Shown here piece after piece: positions 34,669 to 63,827 of a stretch of DNA of 64,000 nucleotides. The stretch comes from Octopus vulgaris (taxonomy: Eukaryota). The stretch's first letter is position 1. Each line of letters opens with the position of its first letter. The translations under genes and the position numbers were made by a program. Below the pieces are notes generated by a model. The model was given only the letters and a program-made list of their open reading frames with translations, was not told the origin of the DNA and did no database searches. Where the stretch lies: contig OX597820.1 of assembly GCA_951406725.2 (NCBI GenBank), positions 76,880,001 through 76,944,000 on the forward strand. The letters are read 5' to 3'.

Positions 34669-35471
34669 GGAGCTGATGCAGTTTCGCACCTCTTCATAAA
34701 AAACGCATTTTTCTGAAAGACATTTTTCGGATTCCTACGTTTTTGGATGTCAGAGATTACAAATATACAAAAGCGAAAAGAAAAATTTACCCCACCTCCA
34801 TTTAAAATTTTGAACGTTTTCGAATTTTGTTTTCCCCCAATATTTTATATAACGGAGATTCCGAATATGCAAGAAACCATATTTTTAAAATTCTAAGTTC
34901 AGTAAACATATAGATATGTGTATAAAGAGATAGATATGAATGTCTTCCTGGGGTTAAAAACAAAAGTAACACCATCTTCTATAGAACTGCCGCATTCATT
35001 TCACAAATATATTTTGTGAATAAACGGACAAGGGTAAATAGATAGACAAATAAATCGATGAAAAAGTTCAAAATTTAAAATTGGGGTAGGGAGTGAAATT
35101 AGAGCCGCTTATTAAATTGTATAACATTAATTATTAAACGGTGTTTGTTTCTCATAAAATGATGTATATTTAATTTACATTAAATTATTATTCAAGATTA
35201 TTTAAGGCAACCATAAATAAAACGAAAATTATTTTCTCTTTAATGTTTATTTTTTAAATTTAATTTCGATTCGTTAACTCGCTACAATCTCTTTAAAGTC
35301 GATAAAATAAAAAAATATAAATTGGGAGGGGGGAGGAAGAGGTGGAGAGGGGATATTTTTTTCTTTCTTTTTTGCATATTCGTAATATCCGACATCTAAA
35401 ATGTAGGAATCCAGAAAATTGTTTTAAAAAAATGCATTTTTCAAGGAGAGGTGCAAAACTGCATTAGCCCC
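34669..35471. mobile_element. MITE with ~120 bp TIRs and an 8 bp TSD (Merlin-like termini)
   Basis: Left end GGAGCTGATGCAGTTTCGCACCTCT; right end AGAGGTGCAAAACTGCATTAGCCCC. Flanks CTCAATCC (34661-34668) and TTCAATCC (35472-35479). Confidence 0.85.
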
Positions 35472-37090: not shown

Positions 37091-37171
37091 ATGATAGATA
37101 TATATTATATATATAATCTCTGTGCGAGGTATAAACAGTACCAGCACGACGTTGTGAAGTAGTGAAGTAAA

Positions 37172-37499
37172 TGTGGCGAACCCTTAAGGATCGATGCTAC
37201 TGTAGCTTGTAGCCCCAGGAAGATATATCTTCCAGTTGGTTATTGACACACTATCTGCGACCTATCAGTATTTGCAAAGGGAAGTCATCGTTCCCGACTT
37301 TCCTTCGCTAATACTAATAGGGTACAGATAGTGAGTCAATAGCCAGCTGGAGATGTCTTCCTGGGGCTACAAGCTACAGTAGCATCGACCCTTAAGTGTT
37401 AACCACACTTAGGTGACAAGTATGCTAATTAAAACACCAGTCTGCTAGAAGTAAACCCCGCACAGGATTTACTTCTAGGAGACTGGTGTTGTAATTAGC
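37172..37499. repeat. Two adjacent long hairpins (37172-37407 and 37424-37499) of the hammerhead-associated repeat family
   Basis: 37191-37223 is a perfect 33 bp reverse complement of 37356-37388 within ~115 bp arms. The second hairpin is GCTAATT..ACACCAGTCT.CTAGAAGTAAA / TTTACTTCTAG.AGACTGGTGTT.TAATTAGC. Confidence 0.9.
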
Positions 37500-37627: not shown

Positions 37628-37737
<110 letters not shown>

Positions 37738-37943
37738 GTTATAAATCTCTGAGCTAGAGAAATAAATAACAGTACCGAATAGCAATGTTTATATGCCAAC
37801 AGAGTGTGACAGTCCTATAAAGAAGGATGTTACTGTTGTTTGAGCGCAGGAAAACATCTTTTCCAGCTGGCTATCGACAGTTTGTGTCCGTATATAGCCT
37901 TTGCAAGGTAGGTCATCGCTGCCATCTCTTGCCTTACGTGATA

Positions 37944-37988
37944 CTCACAGACCTAGGTTTCTGGATTGTGATCCGTCCTCAGTGTGAA
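37944..37988 (-). ncRNA. Minimal type I hammerhead ribozyme, catalytic core intact
   Basis: Minus strand: TTCACA CTGAGGA CGGAT-CACA-ATCCA GAAA CCTAGG TC TGTGAG. This reads as stem I / CUGANGA / stem II / GAAA / palindromic stem III / GUC site / stem I'. Confidence 0.8.
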
Positions 37989-38127
37989 ACAATCACCAGC
38001 TAGTGACGAAAGGTATCTCCACACGCACATCCGCTGAACTCGCACTCATAGGTACTTTTACTCTATTTCTTTCGCTCAGAGATTAAAAACATGTTGTTTT
38101 TCCCCACACGACATCAGCGACTGTGTG

Positions 38128-38164
<37 letters not shown>

Positions 38165-38171
<7 letters not shown>

Positions 38172-38721
38172 AAATATCTCAGAGAGATTTATACAGTAGT
38201 GGTACGATTAAGTAGTTGTATACTGCCATCTTAATGTAACAGTCTCTGGGTGGAGGTGCACAGGAAATGTGTCAAGGCCGACAGGAAGCGTTGCTGCTTC
38301 CTAGGGCTAAATAGCAGTAGTATGATTCCCTTCATGGGACTGTCACATTAAGTTGACAATATACAACTACTTTATAGTACCATTACTGCATAAATTTCAA
38401 TCAGATATTTAGAAATGTATTATTTCTACTTTTGTAATTAGAAAATTTATTTCACTAGAATTGTTATATGTTAACAAGAAGTAGATAGGCATCTCTAACT
38501 AGCAGGCCATGTTACTCCAGACTGATGATGAGCAAAGACTCAGAAACTATGCTCTGGCTGAAGGCTTAGCTGAGTGGATGTGCTTATCTCCCCCTTGTAA
38601 ACATAAGGATACAGAAAATGTGTCAAGGCAGACAGGAAGCATTGCTGCTTCCTAGGGCTAAACAGCAATAGTGTGATTCTCTTCATGGGACTGTCACATT
38701 ACGTTGACAGTATACAACTAC

Positions 38722-38722
<1 letters not shown>
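38165..38722 (+). mobile_element. Retrozyme/Penelope-pLTR-like unit: ~110 bp direct repeats 351 bp apart enclosing a hammerhead, with an inverted partial copy at the 5' end
   Basis: AAATGTGTCAAGG...GGGACTGTCACATTA.GTTGACA.TATACAACTAC starts at both 38265 and 38616. 38165-38243 is an inverted copy of 38338-38419. Confidence 0.75.
38517..38557 (+). ncRNA. Minimal type I hammerhead with mutated cleavage site
   Basis: CCAGA CTGATGA TGAG-CAAAGA-CTCA GAAA CTAT GC TCTGG. Stems I and II pair perfectly; the expected CTAG-TC reads CTAT-GC. Confidence 0.7.
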
Positions 38723-38790
<68 letters not shown>

Positions 38791-38795
38791 GTAAT

Positions 38796-39238
38796 TACTC
38801 TTTTTTATTTGTTTCAGCTTTTTGACGGCGGCCATATTAGACCATCACCTTCAGTCGAACAAATCGACCCTGAGTCTCATTCTTTGTAAGCCTAGTACTT
38901 ATTCCATCGGATCGTTTGCAGAACCGCTACATTATGGGGACGGAAAAACACCAGCATCAGTTGTCAAGTTATAGTGGGGGAGGAAACACAGACACACAAA
39001 CATATACACGCACATATACATATCTAGATACGTGTGTGTGTGTGTGTGTGTCTGGACATGTGTGTTTGTGTATACGACCGGCTTCTTTCAGTTTCTGTCT
39101 ATCGTATCCACTCACAAAGCTTTTTGTCAACTCGAGTTTATATTAGAAGACACTTGCCAAGGTGCTACGCAGTGGGAGTGAACCATATAGTTGATAAGCA
39201 AGCTAGTTACACACAGCCTCACAGCCACTCCTGCGACT
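38796..39238 (-). mobile_element. SINE family A copy (diverged)
   Basis: Colinear with 4884-5284. Confidence 0.85.
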
Positions 39239-43435: not shown

Positions 43436-45586
43436 TGTTCAAGGCATTTACTGCAGTGATATCGCAAAGGCTGAACAAGCACCTGGACGAAAACAAACTG
43501 TTCCCAGAAGAGCAGAAAGGATGCCGCAAGGGCTCATAAGGCTGTAAAGATCAACTAATGATTAATAAAGCCGTAACTGAAGACAGCCACACAAAGAAGA
43601 AAGGCCTCAGTATGGCCTGGATTGACTACAAAAAGGCGTTTGATAGCATCCCCCACACATGGATCCTCGAAACACTAGCCATTAACAAAGTAGCACCAAC
43701 AATCATAAAATTCATAGAGCACTCTATGAATAAATGGCAAACAGTCCTACACCTCCAAACAAAAGAGGGACTCATGAAAACCAAAGACATCCCCATTAGA
43801 AGAGGAATATTCCAGAGAGACACGCTCTCTCCACTCCTTTTCTGCTTGGCACTGTCACCTCTATCTGATATGCTAAATAGAACTGGATGCGGATATAAAT
43901 GTTACGGCAAAACGATCAGCCACCTTTTATATATGGATGACCTAAAACTATACGCTGCAAATGACAAACAGCTGGAAACACTATTAAAGACAGTTCATGG
44001 ATTTACCAAAAAAATAGATATGATATTTGGATTAGAAAAATGCGCCAAAGTAACCATGAAAAGAGGAAAACTAGTTAAGAGTAACAACATCACACTAGAT
44101 AAAACCAATGAAATAAAAGAATTAGACCAAAGCCAAACTTACAAATACTTAGGAATCCATGAACTAGATAAGACACAACACACACAATTGAAAGAGAAAA
44201 TAAAAAAAGAATATTATAGACGAGTTAGATCAATACTAAAAACAGAGCTCAATGCTAAAAACAAGATAATAGGTATCAACACTTTAGCTGTCCCAGTTAT
44301 AAGTTACAGCTACAATATCCTTAACTGGACACGAAATGAACTGTCCAAAATAGATAGGAAAACAAGAAAAATACTGACAGGATCTAGGATGCATCACCCA
44401 AAATCTGACATAGAAAGACTATATATACAACGTATAGAAGGTGGTAGAGGCCTTATACAGCTGGAAAACTACTATAAAATAACCACCATAGGACTGCAAA
44501 AATAGCTACTTCAGAAGGAAGGAAAACTGATCCAGATAGCAGCAAAACACGAGCAAAACAAAAAACTGTTCTCAGTATTTAAGGAAGCTGACAAATACAA
44601 ACAAGAAATCATACCATCTAATAAACACAAAGAAGAAGAAGAAGATGATGAAGAAACAACAAAAGCTATCAAACAAATGAAATCCAAACTAAAAATAGAA
44701 CAGCAACAAGCCATGATAAAACGATGGCAAGAAAAACCCCTTCATGGTAAATACTGCACTAAACTAAACGCAAAAGAAATAGACAAAGAAAAATCCCAGC
44801 AATGGTTGAGAAGCTCAGGACTCAAAGCAGAAACAGAGGGATTTTTAATTGCAGCACAAGACAAAAGCCTCCCCACCAGAAATTACCAAAAACATGTAAT
44901 GAAAAGAAATATTACAAGTAACTGCAGAATATGTGGAGATGGACAAGAAACAATAAATCATATTATCTCTAGCTGCCCAGTCCTGGCTAAGAAGGAATAT
45001 ATTCACAGACATGACAGAGTTGGAACCTACATACATTGGAAGCTATGCCAACATTATGGAATAACAACAGAAAAAAGATGGTATAGGCACACACCAGAAA
45101 AGGTCACAGAAAACGAGAAAGCAACCATACTCTGGGATATGCCGATACACACAGATAGAGAAATTAAGGCCAACAGACCAGATATAGTTGTCAGAGATCA
45201 TGAAGAAAAAAAATGCTTTCTAATTGATGTATCAATACCGGCAGATGACAACGTGTCTCTAAAAGAAATGGAGAAACTCTCAAAATACAAAGACCTGGAA
45301 ATAGAGGTAACTAGAATGTGGAACCTGAAAACAGAAACAATTCCTATCATAGTAGGTGCATTAGGCATGATAAACAAATATTCAGACAAATACATAACAA
45401 AAACACCAGGACTTACAAACACATATAACATACAGAAAATTGCACTACTAGGCACTGCATACATCCTAGGCAGAACACTTTCCATACAATAACCATCAGA
45501 GCATCACAACAAATCACAGCACATACCCAAGGCACACAGAGCTGCGCTCGGTAGTGAAGTGAAAGCACGCTATAAAAATAAAACTA

Positions 45587-57705: not shown

Positions 57706-58854
57706 AGTATATATATATATATATATATATATACAGATGTGTGTGTGTTTGTGTGTGCGTGTGTTTGTGTGTGACGTAGTCTAAGATCGTCTAGGCTAAA
57801 TTTTGTAACACCCAAGCGGAATTGATTTAAATACAAAAAAAAAAAAGACTTCGCTCTTGTAATTCATTTTTGGCGATGTTACTAACTTTAATGATCACTT
57901 CAGAGCTTGCAAAATACACTATAAAACAAACGTTGATTGATGTTCAGTTTACAAATATATGGATTACACGTAATTATGCAGATCTTTGGATGCATATGTG
58001 TATGGTTTTAGTTTAACAATATGTGCATGTTGGTACAAATGTATTGGCGTTTGCGTTCGATGTGTATTGATACGTGTGTCTTTACGTCGGTTATAGAAAA
58101 AAAACCAATGCGAGTAAATTAATGCAGTGCTTTTTCGTTTTTTCTTCTGGATGAATATTTAATTACTATCGACCATGACTGTAGTTGAGTCTTATTTACA
58201 TACACACACAGACTGACACACACGAAGTCTCTCACTTGTCAACACACACACACACCTCTCTCTCTCTCTCTCTCTGTATATATATATATATATATATCAA
58301 TACATGATATTATATATATATATATATACATATATATTTAACGTACGATGAAAGTAAACAAATTTGCTTTAAAAGCGTTGTTGAGATGTATTGAAAGATA
58401 CAGAAACAATTTATTCTCGAACGCACGTTAATGCCAATACAATAGCATAAACAGCATAAGCTATCCATATATTGCAGAAAAATTCGTTACGGCCAGCTCT
58501 GAAACTCGAACTCACATCCCTGTTATTACGCATCAAATTCTTTACTTTTAAACTAAACAGCCCAGTAACGATTTCTGAATTGAATTTAACGTTAGCGTCT
58601 TATAAAGCTAGATTTTTAAATCCTAAAATTGCAGAAAAACTCGTTATTGGGCAGTTTAGCTTAAAGCTAAAGCATTTGACGCATTTGACGCAGGGATGCG
58701 AGTTCAAGTTTTATGGCTGGCCTGTAAGGAAGTTTTCTGCAATATATGGATAGTTTATCCTGTACATGCTATTTTATTCGCATTATCATGCGTTTGAGAA
58801 TAAATTATTTGCGTATCGTTATATATATATATATATATATATAATAAAGTTCAT

Positions 58855-59075
58855 TTGCCAACATAAGGTGGCAGTCCTCCATAGGACTATGTGCGTTACT
58901 ACGTTTTAACCCCAGGAAAACATCTTTTCCATCTGTTTTATCGACAAATGGTCTGTGTCCGAGATATACTGTATGTAATGTGTCTTTGTGATCCCTTCTA
59001 GCCGTTGGCTGTACCAGGAGACCAATGTTTCTAGGAAGAAGAGAAATTACGTAGAAGCCATTGGTGTGCTGGTAC
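58855..59075 (-). mobile_element. Copy of the hammerhead-associated repeat, directly upstream of the GIY-YIG relic
   Basis: CAGGAAAACATCTTTTCCA.CTG...TATCGACA is shared with 37847-37879. The minus strand has a GAAA-CATTG-GTC half-hammerhead near 59020-59031. Confidence 0.65.
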
Positions 59076-59109
59076 TGCTGACTGCAGTATCAGCAAACCA
59101 ATCATTCAA

Positions 59110-59483
59110 TTTATCTAGATACAATGATAGCCGATGTGTCATATGCCAATTCATGCATTCCGGCCAATATAGGAACGCAAAAAATCGAAAAAATATTCAC
59201 AAACACAAATATGAACTGCAAAAGTAGAAATTTAATTTACTGCATCAAATGCCCGAATTGTGAAGAACTATATGTAAGTCATGCTGGAAATGCACGTGTG
59301 CAGCGACAGCAAATTAGAAAACCAGATATCCGTCAGATAACATTGAGCAACAATCTAGCAACCTGTAGTCGGAAAATATTTATATTTCAAATCTACAAAT
59401 TATACAGTCCAAGTGAAATAGAGAGAAAAATTAGAGAAAATAATTTTATTGATAAATTCCAACCCAAGTTAAATAAACAATAA
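59110..59483 (+). pseudogene. Penelope-like element GIY-YIG endonuclease relic
   Basis: RCVIC (frameshifted), then NCKSRNLIYCIKCPNCEELYV...ERKIRENNFIDKFQPKLN, typical of PLE GIY-YIG domains. Confidence 0.85.
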
Positions 59484-62858: not shown

Positions 62859-63827
62859 CTACAATGTATATTTCCTATTTAGCATTGGGGAAGTTTCATT
62901 TATAAGGGCGTACTCCCGTATTTGCCTGACTGTTGGGTCTTTTGGGTGCTTGGATAAGATGCGGATGTCAAGTTGACCCAAGTTGCTTCCATCGTGGTTT
63001 TTGGCATGTTGGTAGAGTATGGATCATTGTTTTTTGTCGTCACATTGTCTCAGATGTTCATTTAGTCGTTCTGCAATTCTCCTAGATGTCTCCTCTATTT
63101 ATGTCATGTTCATGTCTTTAAAAGCACATTCTATGCATCTTATGCTGTAAACTACATTTCGAGTTTTACAGTTAATGCCAGGGCTAATCCTACATGTCAT
63201 GAATTTATCATTGGTATATATGGTATTTTGATAGGGCTTCGCTAGCTTTTCAACAATCTAAATTTTGAGTTTGGTCTCCTTCAGAGCTTTTCTAAATCTA
63301 CGGGTTAGTTCTCCATGGGCTGTGGCATCTACAACATCATTCCTTGATATTTGGCAGTTTTATAACACGTGTTTACCCTCTTTGCTTTGTCACAAGTTCT
63401 TTGTATCCTATTCCATTATTTGTTTTTAGGGCAGGTACCACTGATATCATTAAGTATAATGTCTAATTTCTTTCTAGCCTTCCTGTATACTCAAACCCTA
63501 TCATTCTGATCATATCCAGAGAACTGCATGCGGTGCATGAAGTTCTGTATATGTGTTTTCATTTCATAGGCTTCGCATAGCGGGGACACAACGGGGAGAC
63601 ATTGTTCATTATTCTATCTAAGTCTGCTATCAGTACGTTAGTTTCATGTTGTTTGACAAAGCTGAGCTCTACTGAACAACATATTTTGAAGATATGGGTT
63701 TCACGTAATAGGTGTGGAAGAGCTGCACTCTAGTATCAAGTGCAGGGAGTCTATTGTTGGGGTGCTTAGTGGTGTAATCTATAGTTATCTCGATACTTTG
63801 GTGGATGGATTTAGCTATTTGCTGGAT
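62859..63827 (-). pseudogene. Penelope-like element relic (RT C-terminus plus GIY-YIG), 5' end abutting a SINE
   Basis: The minus strand gives IAKSIHQSIEITIDY...NNRLPALD, YYVKPISSKYVV, INCKTRNVVYSIRCIEC, ETSRRIAERLNEH and DPTVRQIRE...PMLNRK, with stops and frameshifts. Confidence 0.85.

Follow-up and report, generated by a model that had tools for sequence, protein, structure and literature searches.

Organization of the insertion

The window analyzed here, a 64-kb stretch of Octopus vulgaris DNA, contains at positions 38164–38723 an insertion of 560 bases, designated A, located inside a TA microsatellite. The target of A is (TA)n, within which a target-site duplication is unreadable. The insertion and its flanks comprise the following parts:

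38128–38167: (TA)n to the left of A, common to the neighboring element B too
38164–38244, minus strand: inverted 5' arm, the reverse complement of the 3' end (35 nt) and the tail (46 nt), from repeat alignment
38246–38259, plus strand: point at which the direct copy is 5'-truncated; these 14 nt correspond to 38570–38583 and precede a 27-nt deletion
38260–38372, plus strand: direct repeat 1, the first copy of the 3' domain
38373–38423, plus strand: optional tail (about 50 nt) that B and E also have, its far end being approximate (38418–38428), from segment alignment and loose ends of contigs
38424–38461, plus strand: AT-rich linker of about 38 nt
38462–38609, plus strand: long hairpin predicted by folding, about 55 bp with the majority letters of the family, prolonging helix I and carrying the hammerhead as its cap
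38517–38557, plus strand: type I hammerhead, C3 at 38522, cut position after 38552
38611–38723, plus strand: second copy of the 3' domain, where the insertion stops without a tail
38724–38787: (TA)n to the right of A

The direct repeats (38260–38376 and 38611–38727) are spaced 351 nt apart, as the initial annotation had reported, and are 91% identical (blastn E 2e-43); the two copies of the 3' domain differ at 10 positions over 113 nt. The same annotation described A as a 351-nt retrozyme-like monomer. The 351-nt repeat stands, and A is neither a dimer nor an array: it holds about 1.3 units and a single hammerhead, in a partial tandem (pLTR) layout. The unit is 351 nt long with a GC content of 37%, and its circular fold is predicted to have a z of -3.6 against 60 shuffles. 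Folds of the 3' end with the tail have no strong stem in common (z -1.9 to +0.3). The 3' end of A lies 171 nt beyond the ribozyme cut site. An inverted partial copy had also been noted at the 5' end, and it was recovered at 38154–38244 against 38338–38428, with 80% identity.

A was rightly described as free of ORFs: no ATG-initiated frame of more than 48 codons occurs inside it, and RT and endonuclease ORFs are absent, as judged by an ORF scan and by tblastn with P0001, which gives no match in A. P0001 is a 724-aa protein consisting of an RT, a cysteine linker and a GIY-YIG domain. The linker of A would occupy the place of the ORF in an autonomous Penelope-like element (PLE). Its interpretation as the end of a GIY-YIG ORF was rejected, its similarity to the ORF end of the relic joined to C (see below) being equalled by 84 of 300 shuffles. 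Also rejected was a start of repeat 1 exactly at the cut site: the first 14 nt match 38570–38583 instead, and this stretch (38246–38259) has, at the equivalents of 38573 and 38579, the letters listed as the majority in the read-run contigs.

The family in public read-run contigs

The family was analyzed in Logan contigs of 4 of the 24 matching runs (11 studies, five coded organisms), aligned at 80% likeness. The four runs, from three coded organisms, yielded 1,681, 2,879, 3,014 and 385 contigs aligned to A; the 385 contigs are those of X14, a run guessed to be RNA that may hold DNA, and their profile is like that of the DNA runs. None of the 24 runs is listed as an RNA source, and neither this listing nor X14 is taken as evidence for or against expression. 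A belongs to a large, very repetitive family. Most of the family depth falls on the 3' 115 nt, so that most members look like 5'-truncated PLE-type stumps and not like monomers. In X6 the summed depth is 679k for the 3' domain, 134k for the hammerhead and 9–18k for the linker, and in X1 the linker has 0.65–0.85k against a 3'-domain peak of 49k. Linker depth is thus about 1–3% of the 3'-domain peak, where depth is no copy number and dips where A itself has diverged.

Two classes of 3' ends are present. In the first, 38376 is followed by (TA)n (X1, 12 contigs; X4, 23), and in the second 38375 is followed by the tail (23 contigs in X4 and 23 in X6). Contigs running upstream of 38259 in the way the second repeat does number 24, 52, 60 and 7 in the four runs, indicating that repeat 1 of A is truncated.

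The linker has shared majority letters in all four runs, those at 38439–38443 being found in 8–19 contigs per DNA-type run. Divergent contigs extend over 38299–38426, 38403–38528 (X6 record 28, 17 differences) and 38444–38585 (X4 record 20, 20 differences), with 17–20 differences each. The 38403–38528 contig crosses from tail to linker with about 21–26 letters in the tail, below the 31-letter bar. Among the matches listed, the full tail-linker bridge is seen in X1 record 3 only, which has 0 differences and looks like the A locus itself. Divergent sequence precedes 38499 in 13 contigs of X1 and 26 of X6. Inversion joints, e.g., 38499/38685 and 38316/38612, are represented by 1–2 contigs each. 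The contigs listed include no tandem array and none that covers the whole stretch of A. Joints going back 332–343 nt were considered as signs of circles or tandems and rejected, as they are accounted for by the two repeat copies in the reference.

In one frame of 38415–38525 (plus strand), the family majority has sense codons in place of the stops at 38439, 38472 and 38496, as worked out by hand, leaving about 36 open codons over the linker and hairpin arm until the hammerhead core. This open frame is probably due to chance; hairpin pairing also explains two of the three stop losses.

The hammerhead and the predicted hairpin

A strict type I scan placed a hammerhead at 38517–38557, exactly where the initial annotation had put a single one. 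It is the only match in the 64-kb window, and of 100 dinucleotide shuffles, 3 contained at least one match. With looser settings and no shuffle control, the scan returned two exact-core motifs in the window, the one in A and a minus-strand motif in B with C3 at 37982. Rfam recovered no hammerhead, either at the gathering threshold over the whole window (0 matches) or at E<=10 over 37700–38800 (18 chance matches).

The motif in A comprises helix I of 5 bp (38517–38521/38553–38557), CUGAUGA (38522–38528), helix II of 4 bp (38529–38542) and GAAA (38543–38546), followed by CUAUGC. The helix sizes of the family hammerhead are 6, 4 and 2 bp, with helix I of 6 bp plus its extension and helix II of 4 bp. 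In A, B and C the letter directly before GAAA is A, so that U-A (element A) or C.A (element B) stands at 10.1–11.1, a pair for which natural variation has been recorded (PMC3088659).

The cleavage site of A had been described as mutated, and the contigs bear this out. The family majority has G at 38550 (depth 1740/1763, 2095/2444, 23863/25145 and 357/375 in the four runs) and T at 38551 (1726/1763, 2234/2486, 24676/25196 and 357/375), i.e., T>G and G>T relative to A in 86–99% of the depth in all four runs. The UH site of A is lost through these two differences. The family reads GAAACUAGUC, with an intact, palindromic cleavage site (ACUAGU-C) and a 2-bp helix III. The predicted energy of the self-duplex is -4.8 kcal/mol for the family majority, +1.8 for A and -11.4 for B.

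The hairpin was refolded with the core blocked after introducing the 12 majority letters listed for the non-core part of 38455–38612, together with 3 core or loop letters; these were drawn from the best-supported 40 of 88 variant rows and may not share one molecule. Among the 12, 8 repair mismatches, 2 turn G-U into G-C and 2 are unpaired. They take the predicted hairpin at 38462–38609 from -47.0 to -70.7, with 55 pairs, a gain reached by 0 of 500 controls in each of two designs. As 10 of the 12 listed majority letters restore or strengthen the predicted 55-bp hairpin, with 0 of 500 controls doing so, A is taken to be decayed and the fold of the family to have been selected.

Relatives of A and a Penelope-like relic in the window

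Several further copies and a PLE relic are located in the same window:

37733–38127, minus strand: B, a divergent subfamily member in which hammerhead, 3' domain and tail are all present
38051–38095: inverted tail copy of B
37630–37731: (TA)n forming the left flank of B
37944–37988, minus strand: hammerhead of B, with a complete core, a 6-bp helix I, C.A at 10.1–11.1, palindromic ACCUAGGU and a GUC site, cut after 37950
58846–59036, minus strand: C, an inverted 5'-truncated copy that begins within the 3' half of the hammerhead and reaches the 3' end, with (TA)n on its left
59033–59483, plus strand: PLE ORF relic, a linker with CxxC and then GIY-YIG up to the stop, frameshifted and joined to C
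37110–37432: E, a palindromic stump of two 3'-domain arms, with the tail on the left arm only and without a hammerhead
34907–35018, plus strand: F, an old isolated 3'-domain stump

A divergently oriented relative had been annotated near 37790–38130; it is B, and it includes a complete hammerhead core that was left unmentioned there. The hammerheads of A and B occupy homologous places, and the changes between their helices I, read from the scan output, are compensatory. Unconstrained folding of B did not yield the hammerhead fold (z 0.16), and B is therefore regarded as a candidate ribozyme of unproven activity.

The annotated relative at 58855, said to abut a Penelope GIY-YIG relic, was likewise found: C overlaps the start of the relic by about 4 nt. 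The relic matches residues 571–722 of P0001 (E 2e-20, 47% over 97 aa), and its identification as a PLE is based on this similarity. A Pfam search gave no significant family for the relic itself, and with P0001 both RVT_1 (E 2e-6) and GIY-YIG (E 1e-3) fell short of the cut-offs. A linker with CX2-5CxxC ahead of a C-terminal endonuclease is a mark of the Neptune and Nematis clades (PMC8557442). [quoted passage not shown] C aligns to B over about 190 nt with a score of 115 (equalled by 0 of 300 shuffles, whose maximum was 37) and more weakly to A, with a score of 48 (0 of 300). C is thus far closer to B than to A, and the PLE relic beside it is not the direct parent of A. A search for a pLTR after the stop codon of this relic found none (177 of 300 shuffles were as good). 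The initial annotation envisaged a retrozyme/Penelope system with several subfamilies. The family indeed has multiple subfamilies, bears hammerheads, is ORF-less and is tied to PLEs, but most members look like 3' stumps and not like monomers, as judged by depth.

Inverted 5'-truncated copies are present in A, B, C and E, and their arms are asymmetric and vary in length. A profile built from nine segments of the window matched only those segments (next E 1.5, reversed control 0.38). The inverted piece of B (38015–38127) keeps the tail, differs upstream from the own 3' end of B and extends 32 nt beyond the tail, and the arms of E differ from each other near their ends; the arms of B and E may come from different subfamily RNAs. 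Another near-palindrome of 76 nt (37424–37499, 87%) lies immediately to the right of E. A and B stand head to head in 37630–38787, where one (TA)n tract was possibly struck twice.

Other mobile DNA was seen in the window as well. A second PLE-like GIY-YIG relic with stops is located at about 62860–63400 on the minus strand (tblastn to P0001 at 63176–63045, E 0.026); no pLTR of the A/B type adjoins it, and in the pLTR search beside it 199 and 16 of 300 shuffles were as good. A TA-flanked palindromic element occupies 58340–58828, with arms 77% identical over about 440 nt, and its left end alone is longer by about 47 nt. It abuts C across a TA run and resembles an inverted arm plus tail PLE stump of another, hammerhead-free family. 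Each of its arms has a stretch that we take to be like a tRNA B box; ARAGORN found no tRNA in the element. A LINE-type RT element at 43540–45492 (plus strand) has two long stop-free frames of 321 and 328 codons and 270 relatives at E<=1e-50, the best being 89% identical. Metagenome scans gave 576 pattern matches for P0001, with no confirmed relative, and 0 matches for the hammerhead pattern.

Comparison with published systems

The non-LTR retrozymes are an already published class (PMC7229834; bioRxiv 10.64898/2026.07.22.740005). They are defined by canonical type I hammerheads, form circles in coral, mussel and axolotl, have units of 350–390 nt in mussel, and PLEs are their proposed helpers (PMC7229834). 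In type I hammerheads of the canonical metazoan form, the helices measure 6, 4 and 1–2 bp and loop 3 is palindromic; these motifs work as dimers and have G-C as the conserved 10.1–11.1 pair (PMC4209133). It has been argued that the retrozymes of vertebrates derive from PLE pLTRs, and an active retrozyme is recognized as a tandem with two hammerheads (bioRxiv 10.64898/2026.07.22.740005). Like the animal non-LTR retrozymes described in these reports, A has a short (150–400 nt), ORF-less unit with GC below 50%, and its family has a type I hammerhead of canonical size, a strongly self-paired unit and PLE relics nearby. In contrast to them, A is known here from sequence alone and has only about 1.3 units and one hammerhead, the 10.1–11.1 pair of A and B is U-A or C.A, and the inverted arm and PLE tail of A were not encountered in the retrozyme descriptions consulted in PMC7229834 and bioRxiv 10.64898/2026.07.22.740005. 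A type I core with an intact cleavage site is present in the family majority, and the complete core also in B; A has lost its UH site. A is not classed as an active retrozyme: instead of at least two units with a complete hammerhead each, it has about 1.3 units with one damaged hammerhead, whose cleavage site is not intact.

PLE insertions are characterized by a partial tandem, an inverted 5'-truncated copy, an optional tail of 30–40 bp and a bias to microsatellites or (TA)n (PMC8557442). All four features are found in A. The PLE of the anole nicks AT-rich DNA, and its cDNA starts at two internal sites bounding the tail (PMC11167929). With the C-terminal-endonuclease PLEs of the Neptune/Nematis type (PMC8557442; PMC11167929; PMC4209133), A shares the partial tandem and the inverted 5'-truncated copy, and its family shares the optional tail from two RT start sites, the AT-rich or (TA)n target and a pLTR hammerhead with palindromic helix III. 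Unlike these elements, A contains no RT or endonuclease ORF, has a tail of about 50 nt instead of 30–40, and combines canonical helix sizes with a predicted 55-bp stem in place of the minimal hammerhead. The latter (min-HHR) has a helix II of 7–8 bp, a short helix I and G10.1-C11.1 next to G12, which is not the arrangement in A, B or C. The non-autonomous Chlamys PLEs such as MRC1 resemble A in being non-autonomous and pLTR-forming and in having a 3' end in common with coding families, whereas they are green-algal members of an N-terminal endonuclease clade, mostly without hammerheads (PMC8557442).

No octopus hammerhead or retrozyme family of this type was found in literature titles and abstract openings; Repbase or Dfam may hold it. 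The published repeat annotation of O. vulgaris lists Penelope-like families, with 0 occurrences of 'ribozyme' or 'hammerhead' in its main text (PMC13282606).

Origin of A and alternative explanations

It is fairly probable that A derives from an ORF-less hammerhead element whose period is 351 nt, and that it is a decayed and probably inactive copy. The element would belong to a likely self-amplified, non-autonomous family of the retrozyme type, copied by the RT and GIY-YIG endonuclease of a PLE. The copy itself is probably without function.

Such a family would start from a longer-than-unit or circular RNA carrying the 3' domain, tail, linker and hairpin, with the hammerhead in its loop. The PLE protein would nick (TA)n, and cDNA synthesis would begin inside the RNA at one of two sites, either 171 nt past the ribozyme cut (giving no tail) or about 50 nt further (giving a tail). 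One cDNA of about 1.4 units would then run back through the cut site, linker, tail and second 3' domain; since the direct cDNA of A would have crossed the ribozyme cut site, its template was presumably uncut, re-ligated or circular. A second short cDNA, started at the tailed site, would be joined in inverted orientation. Copy A would later have decayed, with loss of eight pairs of the hairpin and of the UH site. For cleavage, intact copies with their palindromic helix III of 2 bp would depend on a pair of hammerheads, and the monomers could hypothetically be ligated into circles of about 351 nt.

Several observations agree with this reading. The anatomy of A fits the PLE signature of PMC8557442, and the two classes of 3' ends in the contigs fit the two RT start sites of PMC11167929. 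The family site is palindromic in all four runs, and the helix sizes fit the canonical type I (PMC4209133) that is linked to retrozymes in PMC7229834. The repair of the hairpin by majority letters and the circular fold, both predictions, point the same way, as do the occurrence of the linker in divergent copies, the junction of C with a coding PLE and the further inversion joints in the contigs. Against it stand the single hammerhead of A, which lacks the two units of bioRxiv 10.64898/2026.07.22.740005, and the lack of an array among the contigs listed. The low linker depth and the short tail-linker bridge, the U-A/C.A pair in place of the conserved G-C of PMC4209133 and the greater proximity of C to B also weigh against it. 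In addition, PLE insertion proceeds in vitro without need of hammerhead cleavage (PMC11167929), and of nine Xenopus dimers one was cleaved and eight were not (bioRxiv 10.64898/2026.07.22.740005).

Alternatively, A could be a gutted by-product of an abundant coding PLE, reduced to pLTR, tail and pLTR either by an internal deletion or when truncated cDNAs were joined head to tail; it would then have little spread of its own and no 351-nt RNA cycle, and the hairpin and ribozyme would belong to the parent pLTR. We consider this origin rather unlikely, although it agrees with the drop in depth from the 3' end through the hammerhead to the linker, and with the mere 38 nt or so of the unit that lie outside the hairpin, 3' domain and tail. 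It is also consistent with B, C, E and F all being stumps or sub-unit copies, with the junction of C to an ORF, and with the divergent sequence ahead of 38499 in X1 and X6. However, the linker has majority letters shared by all four runs, and divergent contigs cover the way from the end of the tail into the hammerhead. The linker is moreover unlike the ORF end of the relic beside C, P0001 has no tblastn match in A, and the helix sizes are canonical, without the long helix II of minimal PLE motifs.

That the A locus itself is an active source of a circular RNA of about 351 nt is very improbable: the 351-nt period, the predicted structure of the unit and its size near that of mussel retrozymes (350–390 nt; PMC7229834) are set against one hammerhead, the loss of both UH site and palindrome and eight helix mismatches relative to the majority. 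Equally hard to credit is a DNA element of the MITE or fold-back type that targets TA, its inverted arm serving as TIR and its hammerhead being a chance look-alike, as suggested by the inverted ends and TA flanks of A, B and E, because the arms are asymmetric and of unequal length among A, B, C and E with no symmetric TIR of fixed length, two hammerheads occupy homologous places with compensatory changes in helix I, the majority letters give back the cleavage site, and the ORF relic joined to C is that of a PLE endonuclease and not of a transposase.

Implications for retrozyme mobilization

Tentatively, and with considerable doubt, we propose a still active retrozyme family in an invertebrate, the octopus, producing circles of about 351 nt, with a viroid-like 55-bp rod, a hammerhead cap with the unusual U-A/C.A pair and the full PLE insertion signature. 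Mobilization of animal retrozymes by PLEs is proposed, not proven, and bioRxiv 10.64898/2026.07.22.740005 limits its own examination of the relatedness of the two to vertebrates. If the family is indeed active, it would show directly, at the level of sequence, retrozymes mobilized by a Neptune/Nematis-type PLE outside vertebrates. As one 64-kb window contains both an ORF-less hammerhead unit bearing the PLE signature and a related copy adjoining the relic of a PLE endonuclease, the octopus offers a convenient test genome.
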